Positions 47,082 through 63,560 of a DNA stretch of 64,000 bases are shown piece by piece. The stretch is taken from positions 25,398-89,397 of the forward strand of contig JBFLZY010000001.1 in NCBI GenBank assembly GCA_040755975.1, read 5' to 3'. The position numbers and the translations under genes are program-made. The notes beneath the pieces are model-generated. The model did not search any database and was not told the DNA's origin. It saw only the letters and a list, made by a program, of their open reading frames with translations. The stretch comes from Bacillota bacterium (GTDB lineage Bacteria; Bacillota; Desulfotomaculia; Desulfotomaculales; Nap2-2B). Position 1 is the stretch's first letter, and the number at the start of each line of letters is the position of its first letter.

Positions 47082-47262
47082 ACTCATTCCCCTTTCCTGG
47101 CTAATTTTGCTCAATAAGTGCTAATAAATTGCTCTGCTATTAAATTTTTGATTATAACAGGACACCCTTATCCTAGCAATATAGGACCTCTTTCAAAATA
47201 GTTTTGTTGTCAGATGTAAAATTATAATCCCCAACGGTCATTTTTGAGGTTTGAACGGCCGG

Positions 47263-48045: not shown

Positions 48046-48076
48046 TAAATACCTCCTTGCCGGTTAAATGCGCTTC

Positions 48077-48766: not shown

Positions 48767-48934
48767 AACCGACGCCCCTTTATAAATTGGTTTTGTAAAC
48801 GCTTAAAAAATTGACCGGGAACTAAATCACGACAAAGGGAAAGTTTTCTACTTATACCCGCCTTTCAGAAATTTTTCACGCAATTAACAATAATTAATAA
48901 TTATATTTCTTTAATTTAAGCTTTAAAGCACTTT

Positions 48935-49705
48935 TCAAAGGAGGTGACGGTTTTGCTTGAAGAATTGAACAAAGTTAAGAACGTACTTGAGCTCGTTAGA
49001 ATTCAGATCGCGCACAGCACGCAAAATCGTCTGCGCCTTGGGATCGCCTAAAGTCTCCAAAACATCCGGATTCAATGAGGACAACAAATCCTCCACGTCG
49101 CTCTGGTGCGGGATTAAAAAATAACTGACGTGGACGTTTAAGCTCCTGGCAATCCGCTCTAAAGTCTCCAAAAGGGGGGTTGTCTGGCCGTTTTCAATCT
49201 GGCTTAACAGGCCCGGCGAAACTTCCGACCGGTCCGCCAGGGCGGTAATTGTCAGGCCTTGTTTCAGGCGTAATTTTTTCAGGCGGTAGCCCAAACTATT
49301 CGCCTGGTCGGATTGCTCGAGAAAATAGCGCAGATTTACGTTGAGGGCCTCGGATAGTTTTTTGAGATCCTCCAGATCGGGAACGGCCTGGCCTTTTTCA
49401 AACTTTTCCAGCGAGGCCACCGGGATTTCACTTATTTCGGCCAGATCTTCAATACTTAAACCTCTGCTTTCGCGGATAAAGCGAAGCTTTTCGGCCGTTG
49501 CTTCGTCATCAGACTCACTTAACAGATAAGTAACGGAAACATTTAATGCTTCGCTGATCCTTTTGAGCATGGGAATTGAGGGCTTCCGAACGCCCCGCTC
49601 TACGGCGCTGAGGTAGGAAGGGGAAATTTCCAGCTGTTCAGCCAGCTTGCTTAAGGTGATCCCCCGCTCTTTGCGAAAATCCCGGATTTTTTGCCCCAAA
49701 CCCAC
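48935..49705 (-). CDS. XRE-family regulator with three tandem HTH domains
   Basis: Same architecture as 47263..48045; GTG start. Confidence 0.8.
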   Translation of the reverse strand: MGLGQKIRDFRKERGITLSKLAEQLEISPSYLSAVERGVRKPSIPMLKRISEALNVSVTYLLSESDDEATAEKLRFIRESRGLSIEDLAEISEIPVASLEKFEKGQAVPDLEDLKKLSEALNVNLRYFLEQSDQANSLGYRLKKLRLKQGLTITALADRSEVSPGLLSQIENGQTTPLLETLERIARSLNVHVSYFLIPHQSDVEDLLSSLNPDVLETLGDPKAQTILRAVRDLNSNELKYVLNFVQFFKQNRHLL

Positions 49706-49859: not shown

Positions 49860-50912
49860 TCAGTCCTGCTTTTCCGCAAACGCGCCGGGCATAAGTTCCC
49901 CTAATTTCACAAAACCGTGCTTTTCCATCACTTGCGCCAGAGCCGACAGGACCTGCGGCGCAAAGATAAAGACCAGCACGTTATTTTGGGCTCCCCGGGC
50001 AAGGGGGGCCCGGTATTCCTCTAAAGAATACCGGCCCAGCACGTAATTATACAGATAGGTTCGCCCTCCCGCCGTTACAAAGCCTTTCGCCCGAATCACC
50101 CCTTTGGGGAGTTGCTCCGTTATTTCCGCAAGGACCGGCAGTTCCCCGCCTTTCCAGAAAAAGGCGGCGGACATTAAGATGTCCGGCGGGGTAACGGCCG
50201 CCTCGGGATCACTCAATAAATCTTCAACGTACTGCTCCAGTTCCGCTTCGATCATTGGCGAGGGCGCAACAGCGGGGCCGTTTTTAGTTCCCCGCGGCGG
50301 CTTTTGCTGCGTTTTCTCCGGCAGGGCCAGCAATTCCGTTACGTCGAGATCGGCGTAGGTAGTCTCGTAAAATTGCGGACAGGGGTGGTGTTTCTGGATT
50401 AAAGACTTTATCTCGGCAATCTGCGCCGGGGAAGCGAGGTCGATTTTGTTGATGATAAACCGGGTCGACGAAGCGATTTGCTTTTCCACGGAGGCAAAAG
50501 CCGCAAATTCGTCTAAAAAGTGGGCGGCATCGATAATGCAGAACTGTTCTTGAAAGTGAAAACAATTATTAAAAATAGACAGGTTAAGGTCCTTTTTCAG
50601 GTCGCTGGGGTTGGCCACTCCGGTGGATTCGATGAGCAGCACGTCGGGCTTAATTTTTTGGGCAATCTCAAAGAGCCCTTTGATAAAATCGGTTTTTACG
50701 CAGGCGCAAAAAATAGATCCCTTGCTGATTTCCAAAATATCCAGCTCCTGCGCCGCCACCAGGGTTCCGTCCACCCCGATTTCGCCGAACTCGTTCATCA
50801 AAATCATGAGCTTTTTGTCTTGCGGAAACTGGTGGAGCAACCGGTTCAAAAAAGTGGTCTTCCCGCTGCCCAGAAAACCGGTGATCAAATAGACATTCGT
50901 TCCTTCCGCCAC
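49860..50912 (-). CDS. CobW/COG0523-family G3E GTPase (metallochaperone)
   Basis: GFLGSGKTTFLN P-loop, ESTGVANP switch region, C-terminal CobW_C-like domain. Confidence 0.85.
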   Translation of the reverse strand: MAEGTNVYLITGFLGSGKTTFLNRLLHQFPQDKKLMILMNEFGEIGVDGTLVAAQELDILEISKGSIFCACVKTDFIKGLFEIAQKIKPDVLLIESTGVANPSDLKKDLNLSIFNNCFHFQEQFCIIDAAHFLDEFAAFASVEKQIASSTRFIINKIDLASPAQIAEIKSLIQKHHPCPQFYETTYADLDVTELLALPEKTQQKPPRGTKNGPAVAPSPMIEAELEQYVEDLLSDPEAAVTPPDILMSAAFFWKGGELPVLAEITEQLPKGVIRAKGFVTAGGRTYLYNYVLGRYSLEEYRAPLARGAQNNVLVFIFAPQVLSALAQVMEKHGFVKLGELMPGAFAEKQD

Positions 50913-51078: not shown

Positions 51079-51351
51079 CTACCCGGAGCAACGCTTGCCA
51101 ATGGCCGCAATTAAGTCTTCCTGGGCCGGGATGGTTGATTCAAAGACCATTTCGTTGTCAACAGCGATTCCCGGGATGCATTTTGCCCCCAGTTCGCTTT
51201 TGCGTTTGATTCCCTCCCGCGTCTTCACATTCCAGACGCGCAAGTCAATTCTCTCCCGGATTTCCGGCGGTAAAGCCTTTACCGCTTCCACCATATAGGC
51301 GCCGGAAGCTCACTGATCGGTCATTAACACATCCACGATCTTTTTGGCCAT
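51079..51351 (-). CDS. thioredoxin-fold protein, family A, candidate selenoprotein (U14; motif U-A-S-G)
   Basis: ATG 51351 with AAAGGGGGAG RBS; in-frame TGA 51310-51312 joins a 13-codon N-terminus to ORF 51079..51294; aligns with the CAAC paralogue; hairpin 51267-51285. Confidence 0.55.
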
Positions 51352-51363: not shown

Positions 51364-51663
51364 TTACGTGCCCGGTTTTGCGTGCTTCTTGTTATAGCGT
51401 TCACGAATGGCGGCGATCAGTTCTTCCTGCGGGGGGATCATTGCTTCGTAAACCAGCTCGTCGTCGAGCGCCACGCTGGGCAAAGACTTCGCTTTGAGTT
51501 CGGTAAAACGCTTGATTCCCTCCCGCGTCCGGAGATCCCACTCGCGAACTTCAATAATCTGTTGAATTTCCGGCGGTAAAACCTTTACCGACTCCGCCAT
51601 ATAGACGCAGGCCGCTCACTGCCGAAAATCGGTCAGTAAAACGTCCACGATGACTTTCGGCAT
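51364..51663 (-). CDS. thioredoxin-fold protein, family A, candidate selenoprotein (U16; motif U-A-A-C)
   Basis: ATG 51663 with AAGGGAGGG RBS; in-frame TGA 51616-51618 aligns with the first Cys of CAAC in 54418..54822; hairpin 51574-51590. Confidence 0.6.
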
Positions 51664-51676: not shown

Positions 51677-52576
51677 TTACCTCCCGACTGCTTCAAAGGA
51701 AACCCGCAACCCTTCCCGTTCCCAGGTGAGGAGGGCATATTGTCCCGCCCCCTCGTTATTTTCCAGGGGGCCGACGTTGATAAAATCCGCCTTCCCCAGG
51801 CGCACGTGTTTCCAGACGCCGGTTCCGGCAAAGAAGACCACATCCGCCGCAAACTGTTCCGTCATGGCGATAAGGGCGGGATAAACTTCTTCGTTGCGCA
51901 GGTAGTCGGACAAGTTGCAGACCATCAGCAACTCCAGGGAGTAAAGGGAAAAGTCCGAAAAACCGTCCAATTCCTGAATAAATCCGTCGGTAAACCCCAG
52001 CACCCGCTTTTTGCCCAGTTGAAAGCTTAAAAAAAGCGGTGCCTGCAAAAGATAGTCCCGGTTCTCCGGCTTTTGGCAGGGCAGGGTGCGGTCAAATGGG
52101 CCAGGCGCAAAAATTATTTTTTCCCTCCTGGCCAGTTCAACCACCGCGTCGTTGGCACCGCCCGGTCCGGTCAGGTTGCCTAAAGAGTAAAGCACTTCGA
52201 CTTTTGAACGCACCGTCGCAATTACCTGCCGAAAAGCAGGCAGGTTCCCGGCAACCCCGGAAATCACCGCTACTTTCCAATGGGGGGCCGGCGCCTCGTA
52301 AATCCTTATTTCATCGGAGGCACGCAACTTCCCTTCCCGCGCCAGCGCAATGGCCCGCGCCAGCTGATCCGGGCAGGACGTGTCGTTCCGGCAGGAAATC
52401 CCTTTTAAAAGCGGGACCACTTCGTCAACATCCCGCCCTTCCAGAAGGCGGCTGATCAACCGGGCATTACCGCGGCAGCCGCCGCCCACGAAGCACACGT
52501 CTTTAAGCACGTTGCCCGCTAACCGGAAGTGGATTTCCGGGGGGCAAATGCCCCTTGTTCTGTAAATGTACAGAAT
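51677..52576 (-). CDS. TSCPD/TIGR03905-like 4-Cys domain fused to metallophosphoesterase
   Basis: GGGCRGN...CRNDTSCPDQLA motif; homology continues 22 codons upstream of the first GTG, to an ATT that overlaps the upstream TAA. Confidence 0.6.
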   Translation of the reverse strand: MLYIYRTRGICPPEIHFRLAGNVLKDVCFVGGGCRGNARLISRLLEGRDVDEVVPLLKGISCRNDTSCPDQLARAIALAREGKLRASDEIRIYEAPAPHWKVAVISGVAGNLPAFRQVIATVRSKVEVLYSLGNLTGPGGANDAVVELARREKIIFAPGPFDRTLPCQKPENRDYLLQAPLFLSFQLGKKRVLGFTDGFIQELDGFSDFSLYSLELLMVCNLSDYLRNEEVYPALIAMTEQFAADVVFFAGTGVWKHVRLGKADFINVGPLENNEGAGQYALLTWEREGLRVSFEAVGR

Positions 52577-52869
52577 TATTCACCCGCTTCGAAAACCTCC
52601 CGGAGCGCTTCCTGCAGCTCCTCCACGGGCGGCGTGTAGTCGAAAGACAACTTGCCGTTAATAAACAGGGACGGTATGGGCGCAGGCTTGCCTAAGCCGT
52701 AGGACAGGATTTTATAACGGGGCGCGCCCTCCACCTGGCGCAGGTAGACCGTGGCCACCTTTACCCGGCCGCCGAAGGCCGCCGCCGCTTCCTCGGCGGT
52801 TTCCAGCGCATAAACGCAGGGAATACAATGATCGCCTTCGTAAATTACTTCCAGGAGAACGTCCTCCAA
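52576..52869 (-). CDS. thioredoxin-fold protein, family B (CIPC)
   Basis: LLEVIYEGDHCIPCVYA... and PSLFINGKL motif; paralogue of 54077..54421. Confidence 0.6.
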   Translation of the reverse strand: MEDVLLEVIYEGDHCIPCVYALETAEEAAAAFGGRVKVATVYLRQVEGAPRYKILSYGLGKPAPIPSLFINGKLSFDYTPPVEELQEALREVFEAGE

Positions 52870-52905: not shown

Positions 52906-53175
52906 CTAAGCAAGCAGCCCGCACTCCCGCAGGGCGCTGACCAGCGTATCTTTGCTGGGGCAGACGCCCATGATCCTGACCAGATCCCCGATTACCAGGG
53001 CCGGTAAAGCCGATATCTTCAGTTCTTCCGCCCTGGGGGTTGGTCCGCGGTGATATTCGATCTTAACCTTTTCACCGTACTCCCTCTTTAATTCCTCCAG
53101 CCGGCGCGTTAAAGAAATGCCTCCGGAGCACGGGGGGACGGAGAGAAAAACCTCAATTTTGACTACTTCAGCCAT
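52906..53175 (-). CDS. thioredoxin-fold protein, family C (single Cys, PPCSGG)
   Basis: VKIEVFLSVPPCSGG..., ALPALVIGD motif; GGGAGGGTGG RBS. Confidence 0.55.
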   Translation of the reverse strand: MAEVVKIEVFLSVPPCSGGISLTRRLEELKREYGEKVKIEYHRGPTPRAEELKISALPALVIGDLVRIMGVCPSKDTLVSALRECGLLA

Positions 53176-53438
53176 AATCCACCCTCCCGCAAGGCGTTTA
53201 ACAGAGTCACCCGGCTGGGCACCACGCCTTCGATTTTAATCAAGCCGTTAACTACTACCGCCGGGACACAGAATAGATTATATTCCTGAAACTTCTCCAT
53301 CCCTTCCTCGCCAACATATTTGCAAAATTCGATCTCCCCGCTGTATTCATCCGCCACCGCCTGAGCCAACTTCATAATCTCAAGGCAGCCGGGGCAGGGG
53401 GGATTGCCGCTGAAAACTTCCATTTTGACGGCCATCAT
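53163..53438 (-). CDS. thioredoxin-fold protein, family C (CPGC)
   Basis: VKMEVFSGNPPCPGC..., VPAVVVNG motif. Confidence 0.65.
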   Translation of the reverse strand: MMAVKMEVFSGNPPCPGCLEIMKLAQAVADEYSGEIEFCKYVGEEGMEKFQEYNLFCVPAVVVNGLIKIEGVVPSRVTLLNALREGGLWLK

Positions 53439-53707
53439 TGACCCCCCAATTCCTTTTCAATTATTTCCGCCAGCTCTGACTCGTTCAACACCTTGCCTAC
53501 GGATACTTTTTTGTCGTTGATGAGAACGGTGGGGGTCATCATAATCCCGTATTTTTGCCCCAACTCGGACAGGGCGTCGTGTTTTTCCACAAGCACCTGA
53601 CCGGCCGGAAATTTTTCCGCCGCCCGCCGCGCCTGCTCTTCCGCCTGGCGGCATCTGGCGCAGGGGGGCGTCGTGCCGAAGACCAGCACCCGCACACAGT
53701 CCGTCAC
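53435..53707 (-). CDS. thioredoxin-fold protein, family C (CARC)
   Basis: VRVLVFGTTPPCARC..., TPTVLINDK motif; GTG 53707 with GGGAGGG RBS. Confidence 0.65.
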   Translation of the reverse strand: MTDCVRVLVFGTTPPCARCRQAEEQARRAAEKFPAGQVLVEKHDALSELGQKYGIMMTPTVLINDKKVSVGKVLNESELAEIIEKELGGQ

Positions 53708-53782
53708 CGGTACCACCCTCCCTAAGTCATTCAAAAAGATAATGGTAACGTGGTTGCCCGTTCTCCTTTTTCGAGAGCCTCC

Positions 53783-54080
53783 TTACCTGCACCCGCATTT
53801 ATTTGTTTTGTCCTCCATTAACGGCTGCAGCACAAACTTAAACAGGGAAGCAGAAACAGCCCCGCCGGCAAGCGGGCCAAGAATATAAACTGCAAAAACC
53901 CCCCGCGCGGACCGGGGATGGCGATCTCCCCCCACCCGGCCAGGCAGGCAAACAAGCGCGGGCCGAAATATAAAAAATATTCATGGCCAGGACCGGGTGG
54001 GGGAAATAGCCGCCAAAAATCATACTAATAAGGAAAGTCCCCAGCAGTTCGCCGACGAAACTGGGCAAGTAATCGTTCAT
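53783..54080 (-). pseudogene. Degraded membrane-channel gene (MIP/aquaporin-like N- and C-terminal helices in different frames)
   Basis: Frame 1: MNDYLPSFVGELLGTFLISMIFGG; shifted frame: GVFAVYILGPLAGGAVSASLFKFVLQP...; total length far too short for an intact channel. Confidence 0.3.
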
Positions 54081-54421
54081 GTCCCTTGTCCTTCGCCGGC
54101 CAATTTCCTTTGTTCCAGCATCCGCCTGATTACTTCCGTCAGTTCTTCTACCGGGGGGATCTGGTCGAACACCAGCCGGCCGTCGATAAAAAGAGAAGGA
54201 ACCGGTGCGCAGCAGTGGTGTTTCCGCACGTTTTCTTCTCCGTAGAGTGATACGGAGAGGTCATAGAAGCGTTTGGCGCCGTCTTTTTTTAAAATATAAA
54301 CGATCTCCCAGCGAAGTTCTTCTGGAAAAGTGGAGGCCACAACCTTGACGACCTCCGCCATGTAATAGCAGGAAAGGTTGTGGTCTCCGGAATAAAGAAC
54401 TTCCAAATGAAGCGGCTTCAT
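54077..54421 (-). CDS. thioredoxin-fold protein, family B (CxxC degenerated to NLSC)
   Basis: LHLEVLYSGDHNLSCYYMAE..., PSLFIDGRL motif; ATGA overlaps on both sides. Confidence 0.55.
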   Translation of the reverse strand: MKPLHLEVLYSGDHNLSCYYMAEVVKVVASTFPEELRWEIVYILKKDGAKRFYDLSVSLYGEENVRKHHCCAPVPSLFIDGRLVFDQIPPVEELTEVIRRMLEQRKLAGEGQGT

Positions 54422-54840: not shown

Positions 54841-55875
54841 TTACCAGGAATCCGGATACCTGGCGTAATACTTTTCGTACCACTCCCGGGCTTCTAAAAC
54901 CTGCTCGATGTGTTCCAACGGAACGTCGTAAGGCATGTCTCACCCGGGGGCGAAAACGTAGCCGTGCGTACCGCCCGCCGCCAGGCTGACGATGGCGTCT
55001 TCGCGCGGCGAAAGGATGCCCAGGGAAAGGGCCAGGGTGAGCTTGAGGTTGCCGCCAAAGCCGACCCCGTATTTTCTGGCCAGGTCGCGGACAAAATTCA
55101 TGTTCAGCTGTTCATCGATGGCAAAGCCGTGGGTGCCGATCTGGCAAACGGCTTCCAGTACTTTCGTGGCGTCGCCGCAAATAAAGAAGGTCGATGTCTT
55201 TCCTTTCCGGTGGATCGTGGCAATGGCGGGCTGGCAATACGGATGGACGAATTCCTTAAAGGTTTCTTTCTTGATCTGGGAAGCCACCGGGTCGACGATG
55301 GCGATGATGTCGCACCCCATATCGCAATACATTTCCGCCGATTTTTCCACCACGTCCTGGCAGAATCTTAACACGTGATGCGCCCGCTCTTTGTTTTTGA
55401 CCACGTCGGTAAAAATGCGCACCCCGGCCAGGTGGCTCCCCAGGGTAAGCGGGCCGACGGCCAAACCAAAGAGGGCGCAGTCCAATTCGTCAAGTTGCGG
55501 TTTCGCGATGCGGGCCGCCTCGAAAAGCACCGGGTAACGCCCGTCTTCGCGTCCCGGCACCTTTAAACCGGCTTCTTCCACGGTTTTATCGGCCAGGGGG
55601 TGGGACTGCACCGAAGGAACGTTGTCTTTCCAGTACTTAAGTTCCAGCCCCATAGCTTCGGCTTCCACCGACAGGTCAAAAACCAGGGGGATGCCGTCGG
55701 CTTTGTACTTTCTGGCTGTCTCCACCACACCTTTAGCCAGCAACTGCGGGTCCCGGAGAAACTTATCGGCCGGCTCGCCGATGACGAAAGCACTGTGCAC
55801 TCCGGCGTACGGAACCCACGGCGCCCTGGGCGTCCTCTTGCCCCGGATGGCGTCAATCAACATTTGCTTGGCCAC
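54841..55875 (-). CDS. MtaA/URO-D-family methyltransferase, paralogue 2, candidate selenoprotein (TGA at the Zn-ligand Cys position)
   Basis: GTG 55875 with AAAGGAGGAG RBS; in-frame TGA 54940-54942 (APG-U-DMPYD) aligns with APGC/WPAC/WPSC in the paralogues; frame stays open 32 codons to TAA 54841-54843; hairpin 54912-54924. Confidence 0.55.
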
Positions 55876-56440
55876 ATTTTCTCCTCCTTTTCTTTTAGGA
55901 TCAAGGCGCTCCGGAAACCCTATCCATTCCTTATTTCCCAGTTCCTTCTCCAGCCTCATCTCTCACCCCCGATGGATTGTTAATTTAAGGTTCTACCATT
56001 GTTCAAAAAGTAAAACTTATTTACACTACGGCTAAACTGCAGAGAAAAAAAATAACCGCTTCAGCAAGCAAATCTTAACTTAGATCTTTTCCGATGTAAA
56101 TCTTCTCCTCCCCAATTGCAATTTTTGCTTATTGAAAAGTCAATTTTCTATCCTTAACGGTCAAGTCCTGAAAACGCGCAAAATTCGCGCTCTTAATTGC
56201 CAAAACTTGTTTGTCTGTCCAGGAAAAAATAGGCCAACCATTAAGAGGCAAAAAGCGACCGTTTATATGTTATAATTTACCATTTAAGGGAAAAAGATTT
56301 ACAAGACCCGGCTTACTTTTATACAATTGCAACAGCAAGTTTTTTCTTTTCCTTCCAAGTTTAGTCATAGAGCATGTAGTTTACACTTTTTGAACAAACA
56401 GTGATAAAGTGACGTACTGCCAAAGTAGGAGGTTGGCCAC

Positions 56441-57475
56441 ATGGAGAAAGGAAAACTCAGTAGTCGGGAAAGAATGTTCAAAGCTCTCAGGGGCGAAAAA
56501 ACAGATCGTCTGCCGGTGCTGTGCGTTAATCAGACAGCCACCTACGAACAAATGGAAAAAACGGGGGCATACTGGCCCGAAGCTAATTTCCGGGCTCAGG
56601 AGATGGCTATGCTGGCTGCGGGAGCCTATTCCGTCCTGGGTTTTGACGCGGTGCGCGTTCCTTTTTGCCAGACAATAGAAGCAGAGGCCCTGGGTTGTCC
56701 AATTAAGGATGGGGGCACCAAAAACGTACCGAGTCCCGCCGACTACCCATACAAGCCCGACGAGCGTCCCGCCATGCCGGAAGATTATCTGCAAAGAGGA
56801 AGGATTCCGGAATTAATTCAGGCCCTAAAATTATTAAAAGAAATGGTCGGGAACGAAGCCCTGGTTATTGGCGGCATTATCGGACCGTACAGCATTGCGG
56901 GGAGCCTGATCGGCGTTGCCGACCTGCTCCGGAACAGTTTCCGGAAACCTCATCTGATCGAGCCATTCATGGCGATCGGCGAGCTGGCCGGACGTCTTCT
57001 GGCCCGGGAATTAATCAAGGCCGGGGCCGACGCGATTTGCATTGAAGACATGATGGCTTCCCTGGACATGATCAGCCCCAAGATCTACCGCGAAATTGTT
57101 TTGCCCTGGCAAAAGAAACTGCTTGCCGAACTTCGGGACATTCCGACAATTATTCACATTTGCGGCAAGCTGGACGACGTAATCGAGGACATCGCCGGTC
57201 TGGGGGTAACGGCAATCAGTGTGGAAACAAAAGTTAATGCTCCGCAAGCAATCGAAAAGCTAAAGAAATTTGACCGCCCCATTCCGCTGATTGGCGGAGT
57301 GGATGCTCCCCACACATTATTCTCCGGCAACGTAGAAAAAGTAAGAGCAGAAGTAAGCAAGGCGATTGCCGATGGGTATCACATGATCGCCCCCGGGTGT
57401 TCCATCCCCCCCGCAACTTCGGTAGCCAGTTTAAGAGCAATGGTAGAACAGGTTGAAGCGGTTTTTAACAATTAA
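56441..57475 (+). CDS. mtaA: methylcobamide methyltransferase MtaA-like, paralogue 3
   Basis: IIHICGK and APGC motifs; first gene of the mtaABC-type operon. Confidence 0.8.
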   Translation: MEKGKLSSRERMFKALRGEKTDRLPVLCVNQTATYEQMEKTGAYWPEANFRAQEMAMLAAGAYSVLGFDAVRVPFCQTIEAEALGCPIKDGGTKNVPSPADYPYKPDERPAMPEDYLQRGRIPELIQALKLLKEMVGNEALVIGGIIGPYSIAGSLIGVADLLRNSFRKPHLIEPFMAIGELAGRLLARELIKAGADAICIEDMMASLDMISPKIYREIVLPWQKKLLAELRDIPTIIHICGKLDDVIEDIAGLGVTAISVETKVNAPQAIEKLKKFDRPIPLIGGVDAPHTLFSGNVEKVRAEVSKAIADGYHMIAPGCSIPPATSVASLRAMVEQVEAVFNN

Positions 57476-57665
57476 AAATATCGGTTTACCGACTAAGTTA
57501 AAAGGTTTCAAAATAAAAAAACGGGGGTGGGGCCGGGGTAACCGGGATGCTTTAGAAAATTACCGTCCCAACATTTCGGTATCCATTTTCAGGAAGGAAC
57601 AACTGGCAAAACCAGCGCAAACGAATGTTTCTAACTTAAAAATAATATTAAAAGGAGGTTCGACC

Positions 57666-59039
57666 ATGGCGAAGTACACTTCTATGGCTTACAATAGCGC
57701 CGACGAAATGGTTTTCGGAACGGCCAAATACCCGGTCAAATACGGGCGCGATTTTGTAGTGGGAGGCGGTTTCGTTTATCCGGAGCTGGTTCCCCACCCC
57801 CGCCCGGGTTCCGAAGAATCTAAAAAAAGCCTGGTTCGGGAGTACGAAAAGATGGTCAACGACGTCTTGGAGCGGTGCGTTCAATTAGGTTTTCCCGGAA
57901 TCCAGGTGGAACTGGAACATGTTTACCAGATGACCAGGCATCCGGACTGGGGCGGGGAAATTGCCGCCACGGCCAGGCGCCTCATGGAAGATTATCACAA
58001 TAAATATGGCCTTAAAAGCGCGATCAGGGCAACGATTGCCGATTACCGTAAACCGGATGAGGAAAACATCCGGGACAGCGACGCCCTGAAAAATATCCTG
58101 ACTACCTTCGAAGCGAGCGCCGCGGCCGGAGCGGATAATCTCTCGATCGAATCGATGGGCGGGAAAGAAATCACCGACTACGCAATCGTTCGCCAGGACA
58201 TCCGGGGTGTTCTCTTCGGCATCGGGGTATTAGGTAGCCGCGACGTAGAATTTCTTTGGAAGAAAATTGTCGAAATTGCCAATAAATATGGAGCCACCCC
58301 CGGCGGAGAAACCGACTGTGCCCAGGCAAACGTAGCCATGTTTATGGCCGGCGGATACCTGGATAAGTCTGTCCCGCATACTTTTGCCGCCATTTGCCGG
58401 GCCATCGCCGCTGCCCGCACGCTGGCGGCATACGAGCAGGGAGCCAAAGGGCCGACGAAGGATTGCGGGTACGAAGATCCGATTATTAAAGCAATCACCG
58501 GGATCCCGATCGCCATGGAGGGCAAAACCTGTGCCTGTGCCCACGCCGATTTATTGGGCAACCTGGTAGCCGCCGTCTGTGACCTCTGGAGCAACGAGGC
58601 CGTGGAGTATCACGACATGTTCGGCGGAACTACGGCAGCGGTATTCACGGAAATTTTGGGCTACGACGTCGCCTTAATGAATACAGCAATTAAGATGGGC
58701 AAGGCGAAAGATTTGCGGGATATGCTGATTAATTCGGACAAGTATCGGGACACGCACGGATTTATCCTTTCGCCGGACAATGCCTACGAGATCGGCAAAG
58801 CCATTGTCAGCAACGCCGAATCTTACTACAGCCGCGCCCGGGCAGCGGCAATCAAGGCAGCCGAATTAATGCGGGGAGACGCCAGGTTGCTTCTGTCCGA
58901 TTTTGAAAAAGAAGTTCTCGAGTCTACCTATAATACGCTCTTGTCCCTGCCCGATCAAGAAGAAGATTTTCTTGCCGAATGCATTCCAATTTATCAAAAG
59001 AGTGTGCGCGGCTTCAAACCTGCCAATTACGGCTTATAA
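57666..59039 (+). CDS. mtaB: methanol:corrinoid methyltransferase MtaB
   Basis: Aligns end to end with my recollection of Methanosarcina MtaB (KYTSMAY..., SIESMGGKE, GDTDCAQAN, KDCGYE, CAH.D, WSNE.VEYH, F.P.NYG); ATG 57666 with AAGGAGG RBS. Confidence 0.9.
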   Translation: MAKYTSMAYNSADEMVFGTAKYPVKYGRDFVVGGGFVYPELVPHPRPGSEESKKSLVREYEKMVNDVLERCVQLGFPGIQVELEHVYQMTRHPDWGGEIAATARRLMEDYHNKYGLKSAIRATIADYRKPDEENIRDSDALKNILTTFEASAAAGADNLSIESMGGKEITDYAIVRQDIRGVLFGIGVLGSRDVEFLWKKIVEIANKYGATPGGETDCAQANVAMFMAGGYLDKSVPHTFAAICRAIAAARTLAAYEQGAKGPTKDCGYEDPIIKAITGIPIAMEGKTCACAHADLLGNLVAAVCDLWSNEAVEYHDMFGGTTAAVFTEILGYDVALMNTAIKMGKAKDLRDMLINSDKYRDTHGFILSPDNAYEIGKAIVSNAESYYSRARAAAIKAAELMRGDARLLLSDFEKEVLESTYNTLLSLPDQEEDFLAECIPIYQKSVRGFKPANYGL

Positions 59040-59073
59040 ATTTACTAAATAAATACTTGGGAGGGAATGGTAA

Positions 59074-59817
59074 ATGTACTTCCTCGACGATTACTCCGGC
59101 ATTTTTGTTCGCTACGACTTAAAGCGCGAACGGGGGGAGGCCAAGGCCGTAGCCGCAGAAGATGAAGTTATGCAAAAGGTTATGCAATGCGTTGTGGAAG
59201 GCGATACGGATAACATCGGCACAGTGGTCAGAACGGCCTTAGAAACCAAAGATCCCATGGATGTTATCAATGCCCTCGTCAAGGGCATGAATGAAGTCAG
59301 CCGGCTTTGGGACGAAGGGGTGTATTATTTGCCGCAGACAATTATTTCCTCCGATGCCATGCTGGAGGGCATCGAAATTTGCGAAGAAAAGATGGGCAAG
59401 GCTTTGGAGAAGAAAGGCGTGATCATCACGCACACAGCCGAAGGCGACATCCACGACTTAGGGCAAAAAATTGTCAATGCCCTCCTCCGGGCCAACGGCT
59501 ATCAGGTAATCGACCTGGGGAAGGACGTGCCCGTCGACGACGTTGTTGCCGCCGTAAAACAATATAAACCGGCCATGGTTACCGGAACCGCCCTGATGAC
59601 CACCACCATGACCGCCTTTGAACGGATCTCCAAACGCCTGACCCGGGAGGGAGTAAACCTGCCTTTCGTCTGCGGCGGTGGAGCCGTTTCAGAAGAATAC
59701 GTCACCAGCTACGATCTGGGCATTTGGGGGAAGGACGCTTCCCAGGCGCCGCTGATGGCGGCAGACGCTGTATCGGGCAAAGACTGGCGGCAAATGCGCG
59801 AAAAATGGAACGGTTAA
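59074..59817 (+). CDS. mtaC: methanol corrinoid protein MtaC
   Basis: GDIHDLGQKIV (DxHxxG), ALMTTT motif, position after mtaB. Confidence 0.9.
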   Translation: MYFLDDYSGIFVRYDLKRERGEAKAVAAEDEVMQKVMQCVVEGDTDNIGTVVRTALETKDPMDVINALVKGMNEVSRLWDEGVYYLPQTIISSDAMLEGIEICEEKMGKALEKKGVIITHTAEGDIHDLGQKIVNALLRANGYQVIDLGKDVPVDDVVAAVKQYKPAMVTGTALMTTTMTAFERISKRLTREGVNLPFVCGGGAVSEEYVTSYDLGIWGKDASQAPLMAADAVSGKDWRQMREKWNG

Positions 59818-59828
59818 GGTGAGCGCCA

Positions 59829-60776
59829 TTGCTTGTTGATCTCGTCAACGGTTTCCTGGGCAGCGGCAAAACTACCTTTATTCAGAATCTGGTCAAGCAA
59901 CTTGTTCCTTTAGAGCGGATCGTCATCCTGGTTAATGAATTTGGCGACGTGGGCATTGACGGGGTCCTGTTGGCCCAGGACGATCTGGATGTCGTGGAAT
60001 TGGCCAGCGGGTGTATCTGCTGTAGCCTGGCCCCCGATTTAGGCCGGCAGCTCTTCGATATCGCTGCCAAAGTTAAACCCGACCGGGTGATTATCGAGCC
60101 AACGGGCGTAGCCACTATCCAGGGACTGCTCTCCGTAGCCGGCAGCTTGCGTTTGGAAAAATACGTGGAAGCGATCAAAGTAATCCTTTTAATTGACGGA
60201 GCTGAATTTAAAGATTTCCACGCCGGTTGCCAGACGTTTGTGGAATCCCAAATTTCCCTGGCCGATCTCGTAATCATTAACAAGTGTGATCTGATTCCGC
60301 CCGCGGCTGTCCAGGAAATCCGGAAAACGATCGCAACAATTAACCAGCGGGCGACTGTTTTAGCTACGGAGTTTGGACAGGTCACCCTGGAGCAAATGGG
60401 TACCCCGCCTACTCCAGGTGATCTGGATAATGGTGGCGGCGGCAAATGTCTCCGCCACCATCACCATCATGACCATTTGGAGAAAAACATTCCTGCCTAC
60501 CAGACTTTTTCGCGAGAATACGACGGGATATTCAATTTAAACAATCTGAAGACTTTTTTTGATCGTCTCGGCAGCCGATCAAAAGGTGAAATTGCTCGCG
60601 CCAAAGGGATCTTCCGTTGCCCGGAGGGCTGGCATAGGATCGATTTCGTACCGGCAACCGGGGTCGTGGTAACCCCGCTGGCGGATAGTTTTGAACAAAG
60701 TCGGGTATTAATTATCGGCCTGGATTTAAATCACTTAAAGTTAGTCGAGAATTTACAAAAGTGCCTGCTGTACTAG
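59829..60776 (+). CDS. CobW/COG0523 G3E GTPase with His-rich insert
   Basis: GFLGSGKTTF P-loop, CICC motif, HHHHHDH stretch. Confidence 0.8.
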   Translation: MLVDLVNGFLGSGKTTFIQNLVKQLVPLERIVILVNEFGDVGIDGVLLAQDDLDVVELASGCICCSLAPDLGRQLFDIAAKVKPDRVIIEPTGVATIQGLLSVAGSLRLEKYVEAIKVILLIDGAEFKDFHAGCQTFVESQISLADLVIINKCDLIPPAAVQEIRKTIATINQRATVLATEFGQVTLEQMGTPPTPGDLDNGGGGKCLRHHHHHDHLEKNIPAYQTFSREYDGIFNLNNLKTFFDRLGSRSKGEIARAKGIFRCPEGWHRIDFVPATGVVVTPLADSFEQSRVLIIGLDLNHLKLVENLQKCLLY

Positions 60777-60789
60777 ACCGGGAAAACGG

Positions 60790-62421
60790 GTGAAGAGAAA
60801 GGTGCGTTACGGTATCGCTTTAGATCTCGGGACCAGCGGTTTTCGGGGGCAAGCCATGGATTTGAGCAACAATGAGATACTCGCTACGGTCATTACCTCT
60901 CGCCACCCAATACCCGGGGCAAATGTAATGGATCACCTTAATTTTGCCGTTGATTTTGGTCTTGATCTTGCTCATAACCTGGTGATCGCGGCCGTTAATC
61001 AAATTATCCATCAACTGGGGGTTCCTTTCGAGAAAGTAGCCAGACTGGCCGTTTGCGGGAACCCCATTCAGTTGTCTATTTTCGAAGAAATCGAAATCCG
61101 CGACCTGGCTTACGCCGGCGAACGCAAAAAAAGGGCGCTCGGCGTTATTCCGCCGAATCGCGATAGCAAGATCCTTTCTGCAGACAGAATTCGTGGTTTA
61201 GCTTTGCCAGCGCAAGCGGAGGTATACATCCCGCCGGCGGTTAGACACGAAATCGGCGCGGATGCCCTGGCGATGATGATTTTGTCTGGTCTGCTGGCAA
61301 AACCGGAAACTGCCCTGGTAACCGACTACGGGACAAATGCTGAAATGGCTTTAAAAGTGGGCGATGAAATTTTCACGGGCTCCTGTGCCGCCGGACCGGC
61401 CTTAGAAGGACAACACATAACCAACGGAATGCTGGCGGCGCCGGGAGCAATTGCCGATCTGCGCGCCGAGGGGGCCGGCTACCGGTTATATATTCTTGAT
61501 CAAAATTTAATTGCCCAAACAGGTGATTTAATTGATCCTGCCCGGGGCGCCGTACTGGAGAAGGGCCCTTTAAAGGCGGCAGGAATCACCGGGACAGGGG
61601 TAATCGCGTTAATTTACGAGGGAATCAAAGCTAACCTGATTCGTCTGCCCGAAATTAAAGTCAGCAATGGTCTCGATTTAACAAACGGGATTAGATTCAG
61701 CAAAGGCGATTTAGGAGAAGCAGGGAAGGCCATCGGTGCCTTGCGCGCCGGGTACCTGACGCTGGCCAAAGAAGCAGGGATTGCGCTTGCCGAAATCGAG
61801 TGCGCTTACATGGCGGGAGCTTCCGGAACTTACGTGGACGCTTTTAAAGCCTACCAGATTGGCATGGTTCCCCCGGCAGTGAAAAAGATTTACCAAATTG
61901 GCAATACTTCTCTGGCCTTGGCCCGCCAGCTCCTTAAGCGCCCCGAATTACTGGGCGAGTTGCAAGATCTGGCGAAGAAATTGAGAGCCCGGCATTGTAT
62001 GTTTGGAATGTCCAAAGATTTTGCCAACGCCTATTTATTAGAGTTATCCTTTTGGGGAGAAGGGATGCCCTGGCAACAATACCGGAAGCTCGGGCGAACT
62101 TTTAAACTCCCGGATTTACCTTTGCCGGAAGGAAACCCCGAGATTCACAGGATAGTAACACGGGATATAGACGTCTTAGGAAAGCGCGGTCTGCAGGTAA
62201 TTGAGCAGGTAGGAGACATGTACCACACGTCTTTCGCCGGCTGTCTGGATTGCGGATTGTGCATTTCAGAATGCCCCGAAAAGGCCCTGGAATTAAAAGA
62301 AGGTAACGGAAGTCGAAGCGTGTTTAGCTTAAGGGTCGACCGATGCAACGGCACGGCCTGTTTGCGCTGCGAACGGGTTTGCCCAGAAAAAGCTTTTTCC
62401 CTCAAAAAATTCATGGCGTGA
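60790..62421 (+). CDS. RamA-type corrinoid reductive activase (ASKHA plus C-terminal 2x[4Fe-4S])
   Basis: ALDLGTSGF ASKHA start; C-terminal CLDCGLCISECP ... CLRCERVCP. Confidence 0.8.
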   Translation: MKRKVRYGIALDLGTSGFRGQAMDLSNNEILATVITSRHPIPGANVMDHLNFAVDFGLDLAHNLVIAAVNQIIHQLGVPFEKVARLAVCGNPIQLSIFEEIEIRDLAYAGERKKRALGVIPPNRDSKILSADRIRGLALPAQAEVYIPPAVRHEIGADALAMMILSGLLAKPETALVTDYGTNAEMALKVGDEIFTGSCAAGPALEGQHITNGMLAAPGAIADLRAEGAGYRLYILDQNLIAQTGDLIDPARGAVLEKGPLKAAGITGTGVIALIYEGIKANLIRLPEIKVSNGLDLTNGIRFSKGDLGEAGKAIGALRAGYLTLAKEAGIALAEIECAYMAGASGTYVDAFKAYQIGMVPPAVKKIYQIGNTSLALARQLLKRPELLGELQDLAKKLRARHCMFGMSKDFANAYLLELSFWGEGMPWQQYRKLGRTFKLPDLPLPEGNPEIHRIVTRDIDVLGKRGLQVIEQVGDMYHTSFAGCLDCGLCISECPEKALELKEGNGSRSVFSLRVDRCNGTACLRCERVCPEKAFSLKKFMA

Positions 62422-62483
62422 AATCGTCGCCAGCAACTTTAGATCTTCAGTTTTTTCTTAAAAACCAGGGGTGTGGATAAAGC

Positions 62484-63560
62484 ATGCTTGCTAAGGAACG
62501 TATTTTGGGGCTGTTCGAAGGCAAGCCCGTTGACCGGGTGGCCTGTTTCAGCGGAACGGGCACAGTCTGGGGACAGGCGCTCAAAGAATATGGCTATACT
62601 TTTGCCGAAGTCCACGGATCAGCTGAGCAATTAGCCCGGGTGGCTGCGTTCCCCGCCCAGGCATACGGCTACGAATGCGCCGTCGTTCCCTTTGACTTAT
62701 GTACAGAAGCAGAGGTTCTTGGCTGCGCGACTAATTTTTACCCGCACCAAACGCGACCGCTCTACCCCAAGGTTGTCCGGCAGGTTATTTGTTCAGAAAA
62801 CGATTTGTTGCATCTGTCAATCCCCGAAAAGGTGGCCAATCTTGGCCGGGTTCCCGTGGTTACCGAAGCCATCCAGCGGTTAAAAGATCTGGTTGGTCAC
62901 AAAGTGCCGGTCGGCTCCCACGTTTTAGGCCCCTATACCCTGGCCGGGCAGGTTATGGATCTAAATTCGCTGCTGCGGCTGACCATCCGGAAGCCGGAAA
63001 AAGTGCTGGATTTACTCGCCAGACTTACCGAACTAATTAACCAGATATGCATTTGTTATGTTGAGGCCGGCGTAGATTACCTGACCGTGCGCGAAATGGG
63101 AGCCACAACCGATATTTTGCCGCCCCAAATTTTCACCAAATTGATCAAGCCGCACTTAAAAAATATATTCGAAAATATACAGGCACCGAAAATCTTACAT
63201 ATCTGCGGCGGCTCGCTTCCGATTATCTCTGAAATGTTGGCCTGCGGAGCAAGCGCCATCAGTATTGAAAATAAAAATGCGCTGGCCCAAACAAGAGCCC
63301 GCGCCGGCTCAGAACCCTTGATTTTCGGTAACCTTGACGGGTATGGAGTCATCGTTGACGGGACTCCCGATGAGGTGGGGGCGGCAGTAATCCGGTGTTT
63401 GGAAGAAGGTTCGGACGGCATCTGGCCGAGTTGCGAAATCTCCCTTGCCGCCCCAAAGAATAATCTGGCAGCCATGATTGAGGCAACGAAAAATTACGGT
63501 GGTAAGCTGTGGTTCCGGAAAAACTTTTGTACGAAAAATAAATTAGGAGCAAAAAAATGA
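62484..63560 (+). CDS. mtaA: MtaA/URO-D-family methyltransferase, paralogue 4
   Basis: ERILGLFEGKPVDR, ILHICGG, WPSC motifs. Confidence 0.8.
   Translation: MLAKERILGLFEGKPVDRVACFSGTGTVWGQALKEYGYTFAEVHGSAEQLARVAAFPAQAYGYECAVVPFDLCTEAEVLGCATNFYPHQTRPLYPKVVRQVICSENDLLHLSIPEKVANLGRVPVVTEAIQRLKDLVGHKVPVGSHVLGPYTLAGQVMDLNSLLRLTIRKPEKVLDLLARLTELINQICICYVEAGVDYLTVREMGATTDILPPQIFTKLIKPHLKNIFENIQAPKILHICGGSLPIISEMLACGASAISIENKNALAQTRARAGSEPLIFGNLDGYGVIVDGTPDEVGAAVIRCLEEGSDGIWPSCEISLAAPKNNLAAMIEATKNYGGKLWFRKNFCTKNKLGAKK

Follow-up and report, generated by a model that had tools for sequence, protein, structure and literature searches.

A UGA codon probably read as selenocysteine in a URO-D/MtaA-type methyltransferase subfamily of sulfate-reducing bacteria

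Results

Gene organization at the locus

The gene of interest lies on the minus strand of a 64,000-nucleotide stretch of genomic DNA from a Bacillota bacterium (hereafter, the window), at the head of a conserved operon (Table 1). Its reading frame runs ...GTHGYVFAPG-TGA(54942–54940)-DMPYDVPLEHIEQVLEAREWYEKYYARYPDSW-TAA(54843–54841). As an earlier note on this DNA had claimed, an in-frame TGA is followed by a 32-codon tail that ends in TAA, and exactly 18 nt (AAGGAGGGGGGAAGAAAG) separate this TAA from the ATG of the next gene at 54822. A gene that stopped at the TGA would leave a gap of 117 nt, not the 118 nt stated in that note. The start codon proposed there, ATG 55959, is probably wrong. In an alignment of 13 Desulfotomaculia loci, the orthologue starts—GTG, ATG or TTG, each after a GGAGG Shine-Dalgarno sequence—all align with GTG 55875, and conservation ends upstream of this codon; we therefore rejected the ATG and take GTG 55875 to be the true start. 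The TTTACA element of an upstream candidate promoter is kept among close relatives of the locus.

The gene directly downstream encodes a CxxC thioredoxin-fold protein in 77 of 80 genome loci (64–87% identity), with a marginal PDB match to thioredoxin 1FO5 (E = 0.03) and a weak match to the NCBIfam HUIPC model. It is followed by a HUIPC-like gene with a degenerate motif (found in 46/80 loci), and by the remains of a MIP/aquaporin gene that is present as an intact, 279-residue gene at the equivalent place in locus L002. The HUIPC-family member that lies further downstream carries Cys; true H-U-IPC forms occur in the orthologous Desulfobacterota operons of loci L024 and L034. The earlier note's two further TGA-for-Cys genes are indeed present in the operon. 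Firstly, the TGA of the DFRQ-U-AAC gene is kept across Bacillota and Desulfobacterota loci, and is followed by a GGU-looped hairpin. Secondly, that of the TDQ-U-ASG gene is kept across Desulfotomaculia loci, also with a hairpin downstream. Overall, the operon encodes up to eight thioredoxin-fold proteins, two of them with predicted selenocysteine (Sec).

Other recurrent neighbours include a CobW-type GTPase gene, located downstream of the methyltransferase gene in 70/80 loci, and an MtrH-family gene, found in the window and in 30/80 loci. A CobW-type GTPase also accompanies the ordinary mtaABC genes of the window. In Desulfobacterota loci, the corrinoid protein/RACo/MtrH/MtaA set sits directly upstream of the methyltransferase gene, and a thioredoxin-reductase-like flavoprotein is encoded as well. 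Thioredoxin-reductase-like genes were found in 77 of 160 loci.

Table 1. Features of the methyltransferase gene and its operon, with positions in the window
Feature	Position	Strand	Basis or remark
Predicted Sec-containing URO-D/MtaA-like methyltransferase CDS (344 residues, Sec 312, TAA 54843–54841)	54841–55875	-	Translation
Shine-Dalgarno AAAGGAGGAG (55890–55881), 5-nt spacer, GTG start (55875–55873)	55873–55890	-	Sequence
UGA codon 312, probably read as Sec	54940–54942	-	Locus counts; alignment to Cys homologues and MtaA 4AY7
32-codon C-terminal tail after predicted Sec	54844–54939	-	Codon-position entropy; MtaA helix alignment; URO-D envelope
SECIS-like hairpin (core GUUCC-GUU-GGAAC at 54924–54912)	54910–54926	-	Invariance, pairing, frozen synonymous sites
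Candidate sigma-70-like promoter, TTTACA-17-TAAGAT	56072–56100	-	~200 nt upstream of start; consensus scan only
CxxC thioredoxin-fold partner, IDVLTLDSVQCAACGYMMESIAA	54418–54822	-	Next gene in 77/80 genome loci, always Cys
HUIPC-family-like thioredoxin-fold protein, degenerate H-N-L-S-C	54077–54421	-	NF047660 90 bits, below cut-off 105
MIP/aquaporin remnant, frameshifted and shortened	53735–54080	-	Only fragments left in window
Three tandem Thioredoxin_3 (MTH895/ArsE-type) CxxC proteins (53435–53734, 53163–53438, 52906–53175)	52906–53734	-	Pfam PF13192, TIGR00412
HUIPC-motif thioredoxin-like family, Cys version H-C-I-P-C	52576–52869	-	NF047660 115.3 bits, above cut-off 105
TSCPD-domain (TIGR03905-type) fusion protein	51677–52510	-	Profile matches
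Predicted thioredoxin-like selenoprotein DFRQ-U-AAC, UGA 51618–51616	51364–51663	-	Translation; TGA kept; downstream hairpin
Predicted thioredoxin-like selenoprotein TDQ-U-ASG, UGA 51312–51310	51079–51351	-	Translation; TGA kept; downstream hairpin
CobW/COG0523 metallochaperone-type GTPase	49860–50912	-	Pfam cobW, CobW_C
Corrinoid methyl-transfer machinery and regulators	42126–49705	-	Profile matches
XRE regulators	48935–49705, 47263–48045	-	
Corrinoid proteins	48077–48766, 46425–47114	-	
RACo activase	44239–46257	-	
MtrH-family methyltransferase	43247–44185	-	
Canonical MtaA/CmuA paralogue	42126–43235	-	

The in-frame TGA is conserved and alternates with Cys codons

All 152 related loci that are interrupted by a stop codon at the codon 312 column (80 genomes and 72 metagenome contigs) carry TGA; TAA and TAG were found in none. 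More broadly, TGA occupies this column in 80/80 genome loci and in 72/79 metagenome loci, with TGC in 6–7 and TGG in one (the relative L082). Among the protein homologues listed, 13 of 120 are full length with Cys at this position, and TGC is the codon in every Cys-form locus whose DNA was examined. That is, homologues show the Cys/Sec alternation that the earlier note had suggested looking for, with TGA or Cys at exactly the codon 312 column.

The tail beyond the TGA behaves as coding sequence. Its 32 residues are conserved and vary mainly at third codon positions (entropies of 0.42, 0.40 and 1.13 at positions 1, 2 and 3 of tail codons 11–32). The tail makes up the final helix of the barrel: it falls within the URO-D Pfam envelope, and its aligned counterpart in MtaA is the C-terminal helix. 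It is highly improbable that the TGA is an ordinary stop, giving a product of 311 residues and leaving the downstream 96 nt as an untranslated spacer or decayed remnant. This reading agrees with public annotation, in that all inspected database entries for the family, including RefSeq WP_ records of cultured Desulfofundulus and Pelotomaculum, end at residue 311. TGA is also commonly used as a stop in this genome. Moreover, the sole proteome study of a carrier, Desulfofundulus kuznetsovii TPOSR grown on methanol or lactate, did not detect the protein, though it did detect a neighbouring product, NHM26675.1, the likely orthologue of the CxxC partner. However, an ordinary stop sits poorly with the exclusive use of TGA among 152 loci, and with a tail whose frame and coding substitution pattern are kept across two phyla. 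Truncation would, in addition, cost the domain its final helix along with the residue that matches a zinc ligand in the alignment, and Cys-containing homologues continue straight through.

Alternatively, the UGA could specify a standard amino acid (e.g., Trp, Cys or Gly), inserted through near-cognate decoding or under a variant code without involvement of the Sec machinery. The TGG of L082 is in keeping with such decoding, but TGA is the normal stop of 12 of the 34 genes checked in the window, the next gene included, and the alternation is with Cys, as known selenoproteins show. Furthermore, the UGA is followed by a hairpin with a G-first apical loop (see below). The hosts are Bacillota and Desulfobacterota, which as far as we know use the standard genetic code. 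We consider this kind of read-through very improbable as well.

Regarding the Sec machinery itself, indirect support comes from the two other conserved TGA genes of the operon and from Desulfofundulus salinus, a related species whose annotation includes a formate dehydrogenase with Sec. No tRNA-Sec was found in the 64-kb window or in any of the 165 loci compared.

A SECIS-like hairpin follows the TGA

Bacterial SECIS elements typically have a G-first apical loop and obey rules of loop structure and distance from the UGA. In the window, the hairpin GUUCC-GUU-GGAAC begins 15 nt after the UGA, exactly as the earlier note had described. Its 5-bp core (GUUCC/GGAAC) and loop pattern (G-K-Y) are invariant across 124 distinct sequences, and in most orthologues the stem reaches 7 bp (AUGUUCC/GGAACAU) around a G-G-U loop. 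The stem starts between +16 and +18, and the G of the loop is at +23; the loop comprises only 3 nt as drawn, and opening of the closing C-G pair would make it 5 nt. Scanned against Rfam at gathering thresholds, the entire window yields a single match, an int-alpA RNA at 24712–24786, and no model matches the hairpin.

Three observations indicate that the hairpin is conserved as an RNA structure, in line with the SECIS check proposed by the earlier note. Firstly, pairing is retained at 96.5%, compared with 15–56% for slid controls, and includes two compensatory changes (U-A to C-G), each at the cost of one amino-acid change. Secondly, synonymous sites are frozen: the hairpin codons have entropies of 0.11, 0.12 and 0.17 by codon position. 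The Val codon is GTT in 144/144 genes (23% elsewhere in the same genes), the Pro codon CCG in 144/145 (33% elsewhere) and the Glu codon GAA in 144/145 (61% elsewhere). Thirdly, the hairpin is lost in four of the five distinct Cys-form sequences; Cys forms L083–L087 lack it and use other synonymous codons.

These data also bear on a third alternative, namely that translation terminates at the UGA and re-initiates at an AUG 3 nt further on (UGA-GAC-AUG), to yield a 311-residue protein plus a 31-residue peptide. An AUG does follow in most loci (as D-M-P), and the upstream GGGUGAG weakly resembles a Shine-Dalgarno sequence. Yet some Sec forms have CUN or AUH in place of the AUG (D-L-P, D-I-P) while still keeping both the TGA and the hairpin. 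Re-initiation would explain neither the exclusive use of TGA nor why the hairpin has gone along with the Sec codon in four of the five distinct Cys-form sequences, and we give it hardly any weight.

Since the TGA, tail and hairpin recur together in 152 independent loci from two phyla, chance can be set aside. On the evidence of these sequence comparisons, we regard it as almost certain that the TGA encodes selenocysteine, and the selenoprotein reading put forward in the earlier note is supported.

Enzyme family, fold and active site

Genomes of Desulfotomaculia and Desulfobacterota, at least 254 at species level, hold relatives of the predicted protein; Sec predominates in the family, and Cys forms are the minority. 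Cultured carriers include Desulfofundulus thermosubterraneus DSM 16057, D. australicus DSM 11792, D. kuznetsovii TPOSR, Pelotomaculum propionicicum, Desulfospira joergensenii DSM 10085 and Desulfatitalea alkaliphila. The full-length translation matches the Pfam URO-D profile (PF01208) with 183 bits (cut-off 23.9) over profile positions 4–344 of 346, a match that spans the TGA. It falls below the NCBIfam MtaA/CmuA model TIGR01463 (132.3 bits; cut-off 235.4) and PRK06252 (118.5 bits; cut-off 244), while the window paralogue at 42126–43235 passes both (239 and 273 bits). The best PDB match is MtaA 4AY7 (phmmer, 5e-24). We infer the fold from the AlphaFold model of the Cys homologue P0023, which is 70% identical to the window protein: the model (pLDDT 93) gives a Foldseek match to 4AY8/4AY7 with a TM of 0.86, pointing to an MtaA-like three-dimensional fold for the family.

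MtaA, MetE and their relatives have a Zn(Cys)2His site, at which thiols are activated for methyl transfer. When the window protein is aligned with Methanosarcina mazei MtaA, the TGA falls on the Cys of APGCG, and hence, as predicted by the earlier note, on the C-terminal zinc-ligand position. The three URO-D paralogues in the window carry H-I-C-G plus a Cys at the aligned column (IAPGCSIPP, IWPSCEISL, VWPACDIWP), and the H-x-C motif of the window protein is altered to F-I-C-G-D, as that note had also observed. In all family members examined, Phe or Leu stands in place of the His; where MtaA/CmuA proteins show the zinc motif His-x-Cys...Cys, the family has F/L-I-C...U/C. The Cys of the H-x-C motif is retained as Cys233. 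Where the window protein has Asp254, MtaA has a Glu within its V-E-E-K segment (a Glu which we take to be an exchangeable ligand of MtaA), and His92 and His148 are candidate replacements for the lost His.

Because the score lies far below the MtaA/CmuA cut-off and the His ligand has been lost, zinc binding and MtaA-like chemistry are not assured. A Sec/Cys/Asp site may bind zinc and activate a thiol or a selenol, as soft nucleophile or as leaving group, in the exchange of methyl groups with Co(I)/CH3-Co(III), a proposal that we hold tentatively and at a little under even confidence. A natural selenolate at a zinc site would, to our knowledge, be a rare case.

Sec312 could instead be inserted without ligating zinc, and form with Cys233 a redox-active or covalent selenol/thiol pair. 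Such a pair would cycle through a selenenylsulfide or bind substrate directly, and would be recycled by thioredoxin-like proteins and a thioredoxin-reductase-like enzyme. The loss of the His in every family member, the near-constant placement of a CxxC gene next to the methyltransferase gene, the thioredoxin-reductase-like gene in 77/160 loci and the wealth of thioredoxin-fold proteins in the operon all speak for this possibility. In addition, known selenoproteins are mostly redox proteins according to a selenoproteome review table. Against it stand the position of Asp254, the conservation in the operon of a CobW-type metallochaperone GTPase (though one is also found beside ordinary mtaABC), and the tolerance of other zinc-containing URO-D methyltransferases to ligand substitutions (PMC10418091). 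On balance, we judge a redox or covalent pair possible, at appreciably less than even chance.

Discussion

Proposed function

Taken as a whole, the observations are best explained by a UGA-recoded selenoprotein subfamily of the URO-D/MtaA type, an interpretation in which we have high confidence. UGA312 would be recoded to Sec with the aid of a SECIS-like hairpin inside the coding sequence, and the product would be a 344-residue (β/α)8-barrel of the URO-D superfamily, with the corrinoid:coenzyme M methyltransferase MtaA as its nearest solved relative. Genomic association suggests a corrinoid-dependent methyltransferase that works with the neighbouring corrinoid protein, RACo and MtrH-type methyl-tetrahydrofolate enzyme. 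The CxxC partner (plus, in Desulfobacterota, the thioredoxin-reductase-like flavoprotein) would maintain the Se/S site in its reduced state or act on the product.

Methylated sulfur or selenium compounds are the most likely substrates of the proposed enzyme. A His-Cys-Cys rule has been described for S/Se methyltransferases, along with selenide methylation by a related enzyme (PMC10418091). Cys-form clusters carry homocysteine-biosynthesis (HcyBio), Hdr-like and NMT1-type ABC transporter genes. Arsenic methylation was also considered. Pointers in its direction are (i) the aquaporin gene of some Desulfofundulus operons, (ii) the thioredoxin and reductase genes, and (iii) a DUF2284 neighbour, related to a domain that is fused to arsenite-methyltransferase selenoproteins. 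We ranked arsenic below methyl-sulfur and methyl-selenium compounds, as no arsenic regulators or efflux genes were seen nearby.

It is also conceivable, if unlikely, that the former zinc site has become a metal-free selenol/thiol centre, in which Sec312 and Cys233 covalently bind a methyl-chalcogenide or metalloid substrate. The resulting species (e.g., Enz-Se-S-CH3, or an As/Se adduct) would serve as methyl donor or acceptor for the corrinoid cobalt, and a relay of thioredoxin-like (seleno)proteins, together with the thioredoxin-reductase-like enzyme, would release the product. If true, this would be a new way to activate substrates for corrinoid methyl transfer, in an operon of three to four selenoproteins.

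Relationship to known systems

The predicted Sec protein shares with M. mazei MtaA (4AY7/4AY8) the (β/α)8 URO-D fold, the H-x-C Cys (Cys233) and the column of the APGCG Cys, here Sec312; in both cases, the genes adjoin those for a corrinoid protein and an activase. It differs in that it is only ~25% identical, has Phe or Leu for the H-x-C His and (in most family members) Sec as C-terminal ligand, scores below every NCBIfam MtaA cut-off, and is coupled to thioredoxin-like proteins. As far as we know, sulfate reducers do not make coenzyme M.

A second point of comparison is provided by the type 1 mlp clusters of anaerobes, which combine several MtaA-like Mlps with a corrinoid protein and a RACE/RACo activase (Kountz & Balskus, PMC10418091). 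These clusters have a proposed role in methyl-sulfur/methyl-selenium metabolism and a strong association with Sec-using organisms, and the same work cites genes for dimethylselenide demethylation in Methanococcus voltae. The Sec loci likewise hold two URO-D proteins, a corrinoid protein and RACo. However, the published account presents the Mlps as His-Cys-Cys proteins and reports no Sec in them, whereas the Sec protein lacks the His; and mlp clusters are without a tetrahydrofolate methyltransferase, whereas many Sec loci have MtrH. The comparison draws on the published description of the mlp clusters and of Mlp1, Mlp2 and Mlp3.

Several bacterial selenoproteins are known to use Sec in place of an active-site or metal-binding Cys, among them arsenite methyltransferase, HgcA and SaoB/SaoC (PMC13188914). 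The family described here resembles them in its Cys/Sec alternation, in-frame UGA and hairpin inside the coding sequence, and clustered selenoprotein genes. A URO-D/MtaA selenoprotein family is absent from the 2022 and 2026 selenoproteome review tables, from NCBIfam and from the results of full-text searches; papers on dual genetic-code expansion, read-through prediction and a dichloromethane fermenter make no mention of Sec in MtaA-like proteins.

The HUIPC family (NF047660), a Cys-form member of which lies in the operon, is a different protein with a small thioredoxin fold. Haft and Tolstoy reportedly treated this HUIPC-motif thioredoxin-like (seleno)protein family in 2025; because HUIPC members sit in the window operon and in orthologous Desulfobacterota operons, they may have looked at the neighbourhood of the methyltransferase operon.

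Significance

The comparisons strongly support a distinct, widespread methyltransferase subfamily of sulfate reducers, in which the combination of a URO-D/MtaA protein with Sec is apparently unreported in review tables and NCBIfam. The annotated 311-residue proteins lack a probably catalytic residue and the last helix; since the inspected database entries end at residue 311, censuses of the sulfate-reducer selenoproteome would undercount. The replacement of Cys by Sec, together with the loss of the His, amounts to a natural experiment on how a metal-chalcogenolate site tunes reactivity: the family may present either a selenolate at a zinc site or the conversion of a zinc site to selenium chemistry. 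The operon that the proposed Sec gene heads would carry two or three further selenoproteins. In a 2024 study of D. kuznetsovii TPOSR, this operon was described as an 'inserted fragment' of unknown function. Read as selenium-dependent corrinoid methyl transfer, the TPOSR block would gain a role open to testing, namely the cycling of metalloids or of methyl-sulfur or methyl-selenium compounds, for which anoxic sediments and the deep subsurface are the proposed settings.

Gene boundaries and the in-frame UGA

The minus-strand reading frame of the gene of interest runs through ...GTHGYVFAPG to a TGA at 54942–54940, and then stays open over another 32 sense codons (DMPYDVPLEHIEQVLEAREWYEKYYARYPDSW) up to a TAA at 54843–54841. 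Between this TAA and the ATG of the next gene (54822) lie 18 nt that contain a strong Shine-Dalgarno sequence; termination at the TGA would instead leave 117 nt. This arrangement, together with the hairpin GUUCC-GUU-GGAAC (54924–54912) that begins 15 nt past the UGA, is as an earlier note had it, apart from a gap of 118 nt. The start codon proposed there, ATG 55959, needs revision: orthologue starts (GTG, ATG or TTG, located 5–8 bases past a GGAGG) align with GTG 55875 (MAKQMLIDA...), and the DNA upstream of this position is unconserved among orthologues. The gene therefore encompasses positions 55875–54841 and encodes 344 residues, with UGA as codon 312. One homologue from a metagenome-assembled Bacillota genome (P0143, MEW6423226.1) is annotated with 339 amino acids, the length of the window's ATG-55959 frame. 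Desulfovirgula sp. (locus L013) is 95% identical.

The UGA and the downstream tail are conserved

A protein search returned 1079 homologues (E ≤ 1e-20), the best 120 of which were inspected. Among these 120, 106 end exactly at the UGA position, with 311, 306 or 307 residues (and one with 337, owing to an N-terminal extension). The remaining 14 have 341–348 residues, and 13 of them carry Cys in the selenocysteine (Sec) column (APG-C-DMP(Y/F)D), followed by the conserved tail. A GTDB scan with one genome per species identified 254 loci encoding a relative. In all 80 loci that were retained, TGA is followed by an open, conserved 32-codon tail. Carriers include, from the Bacillota, Desulfofundulus, Desulfotomaculum copahuensis, Pelotomaculum propionicicum and Desulfovirgula; from the named Desulfobacterota, Desulfospira joergensenii and Desulfatitalea alkaliphila; and many metagenome-assembled Desulfobacterales, Syntrophobacteraceae and Desulfatiglandales. 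Even with Cys forms as seeds, a scan of metagenomes gave 72 TGA, six TGC and one TGG at this codon. Neither TAA nor TAG occurs there in the loci of the two scans (80 and 79, respectively).

Recoding of UGA is site-specific, since TGA is the terminator of 12 of the window's 34 confident genes, the adjacent downstream gene among them. No tRNA-Sec was found in the window or in 165 related loci. A Sec machinery in the genome is indirectly supported by the operon's two further conserved TGA-for-Cys genes and by the Sec-containing formate dehydrogenase annotated in Desulfofundulus salinus. We conclude that the gene almost certainly belongs to a real, widespread selenoprotein family. The Sec interpretation put forward in the earlier note is supported by the conservation of the UGA, the Cys/Sec alternation at its column, the translated tail, the constrained hairpin and the position of the Sec residue.

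Selection acts on both the peptide and the hairpin

Entropies at codon positions 1, 2 and 3 are 0.35, 0.31 and 1.44 in the ten codons 5' of the UGA, and 0.42, 0.40 and 1.13 in tail codons 11–32, a pattern typical of translated DNA subject to purifying selection. For the six hairpin codons (D-V-P-x-E-H), the values are 0.11, 0.12 and 0.17; here, synonymous sites are frozen too. Among 145 distinct Sec-form genes, hairpin Val is GTT in 144 of 144 cases (23% elsewhere in the same genes), Pro is CCG in 144 of 145 (33% elsewhere), and Glu is GAA in 144 of 145 (61% elsewhere). Every frozen wobble base is either the leading G of the loop or the partner of an invariant base at codon position 1 or 2. 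In a set of 118 distinct sequences, pairing in the 7-bp hairpin reaches 96.5%, compared with 15–56% for a slid 3' arm. The stem has twice undergone a double change from U-A to C-G, independently and each time at the cost of an altered residue (His to Arg, locus L093; Val to Ala, L158).

Cys forms L083–L087 encode similar peptides with GTC/GTG, CCC/TCC and GAG, destroying the hairpin. The stem is retained in Cys form L081 and intact in the single TGG form, which suggests that both are recent switches. In a neighbour-joining tree, Cys forms are basal as well as nested among Sec forms, implying repeated interconversion. The TGG gene (L082 8001–9035, protein P0025) retains a perfect SECIS-like hairpin; its codon may have arisen by very recent mutation or may reflect a sequencing error, and Trp would be odd at a ligand position.

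A distinct subfamily of MtaA-like proteins

The protein matches Pfam URO-D with 183 bits, in a match that crosses the TGA. Its best solved relative by sequence is Methanosarcina mazei MtaA (4AY7; 5e-24), to which it aligns with F-I-C-G-D against H-I-C-G-N, and G-U-D-M-P against G-C-G-I-A. The AlphaFold model of a 70%-identical Cys homologue (P0023; pLDDT 93) has a TM score of 0.86 to 4AY8/4AY7. As the earlier note observed, F-I-C replaces H-x-C, and the window paralogues have Cys at the Sec column: all three keep H-I-C-G, the acidic residue of (V/I)-E-(T/N)-K and the C-terminal Cys, while the corresponding motifs throughout the Sec family are F/L-I-C-G-D, I-D-E-Q and G-(U/C)-D. Asp254 aligns with an MtaA Glu that we take to be an exchangeable ligand. 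Two histidines, His92 and His148, do not vary within the Sec family and are absent from the window paralogues; M. mazei MtaA shares His92 and has Asp at 148. On the NCBIfam MtaA/CmuA model the protein scores 132 bits against a cut-off of 235, while the canonical MtaA paralogue at 42126–43235 passes the cut-offs. Given these motifs and scores, the Sec family is, as judged from sequence, a distinct subfamily in which the C-terminal ligand is Sec and the His ligand is lost.

An operon with several selenoproteins

Features of the operon and its surroundings
Feature	Position	Strand	Remark
Sec gene (URO-D/MtaA-like)	54841–55875	-	first gene of the operon
CxxC thioredoxin-fold protein			
HUIPC-like protein			
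MIP/aquaporin remnant	~53735–54080	-	shortened, frameshifted; intact in Desulfofundulus thermosubterraneus (L002 11778–12617)
Three Thioredoxin_3 proteins			
Cys-form HUIPC member (H-C-I-P-C)	52576–52869	-	115 bits, cut-off 105
TSCPD fusion protein			
Thioredoxin-like selenoprotein, DFRQ-U-AAC	51364–51663	-	TGA at first position of CxxC-type motif
Thioredoxin-like selenoprotein, TDQ-U-ASG	51079–51351	-	TGA at first position of CxxC-type motif
CobW GTPase			
Regulators, two corrinoid proteins, RACo activase, MtrH-family methyltransferase			further on
Canonical MtaA paralogue, passing MtaA/CmuA cut-offs	42126–43235		
TTTAGCC-A/T-AAG-A/T-GCA-like motif	~56010–56040	-	~130–150 nt 5' of the start
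mtaA, mtaB, mtaC, CobW gene, RACo-like activase with 4Fe-4S domain, URO-D paralogue	56441–63560	+	complete methanol methyltransferase set, divergent, adjoining the operon
Phage-type integrase gene	24695–25828	+	
Rfam int-alpA RNA	24712–24786	+	37.8 bits, cut-off 35.8; 5' end of integrase gene

The two further TGA-for-Cys genes that the earlier note placed in the operon are present, and their in-frame TGA is kept in Bacillota and Desulfobacterota orthologues. Both contain a GGU/GGC-looped hairpin ~28–44 nt past the UGA. Since the proteins score 31–43 bits on the NCBIfam HUIPC model (cut-off 105), they may represent uncatalogued selenoprotein subfamilies. The operon's H-C-I-P-C protein belongs to the HUIPC motif thioredoxin-like (seleno)protein family, of which L024 and L034 encode true H-U-IPC forms in their orthologous operons. 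The spacer with the aquaporin remnant is ~540 nt shorter than in a 99%-identical locus (L001). The TTTAGCC-type motif is conserved in Desulfotomaculia loci L001–L013 and may be an operator for the operon's XRE-type regulators. The int-alpA match and the integrase gene hint at the boundary of an integrated element.

The partners are conserved across genomes: the CxxC gene directly follows the Sec gene in 77 of 80 genomes, and CobW is present in 70 of 80. The Desulfobacterota order is MtrH, MtaA paralogue, corrinoid protein, RACo, DUF6951, DUF2284, Sec gene and CxxC partner, after which come other genes, among them CobW and one for a thioredoxin-reductase-like flavoprotein; 77 of 160 loci have such a reductase-like gene downstream. 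Cys-form clusters additionally hold two HcyBio genes, an Hdr-like protein and an NMT1-type ABC transporter. DUF6951 and DUF2284 lie directly 5' of the Sec gene in Desulfobacterota (e.g., L041 8709–9797, L015 13352–14275); the DUF2284 protein resembles a domain known from fusions with arsenite-methyltransferase selenoproteins and with MbdU.

In D. kuznetsovii TPOSR, the Sec block was reported as an "inserted fragment" that replaces mtaBC and has no assignable function (2024; PMC10907483). The only protein of that block detected in the proteome, NHM26675.1 (PMC10907483), is probably the product of the gene adjoining the Sec gene, because its accession number is consecutive.

Possible function and relation to known systems

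Among described systems, MtaA itself comes closest, along with the type 1 mlp clusters reported by Kountz & Balskus (PMC10418091), who tie MtaA-like proteins to methyl-S/Se metabolism and find Sec machinery in 87% of mlp host species. They report no Sec in the mlp enzymes, unlike the family described here. The URO-D/MtaA family is absent from the family tables of the 2022 and May 2026 selenoproteome reviews, NCBIfam release 20 has no model covering the Sec family, and RefSeq/GenBank name all members "uroporphyrinogen decarboxylase family protein" (311 residues). As far as can be told from these tables and models, the family is uncatalogued.

The zinc sphere of URO-D-superfamily S-methyltransferases is His-Cys-Cys (PMC10418091). 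By analogy with MtaA and coenzyme M, the Sec/Cys/Asp site could bind zinc and activate a soft (S/Se) substrate atom for methyl exchange with the neighbouring corrinoid protein; we put this at slightly short of an even chance. The lost His ligand speaks for the main alternative, a metal-free site in which a selenol/thiol pair is serviced by a thioredoxin relay, which we regard as possible but somewhat doubtful. If the site does bind zinc, the thioredoxin-like proteins would keep it reduced or handle the product.

Overall, the protein appears to be an MtaA-like corrinoid methyltransferase with Sec at the zinc-ligand Cys position, leading a multi-selenoprotein operon. The most likely substrates would be methylated sulfur or selenium compounds, given that (i) the canonical paralogue belongs to the His-Cys-Cys (S/Se) type, (ii) the related enzyme Mlp2 methylates selenide (PMC10418091), and (iii) sulfur-metabolism genes are found in the Cys-form clusters; a role in arsenic methylation seems less likely.
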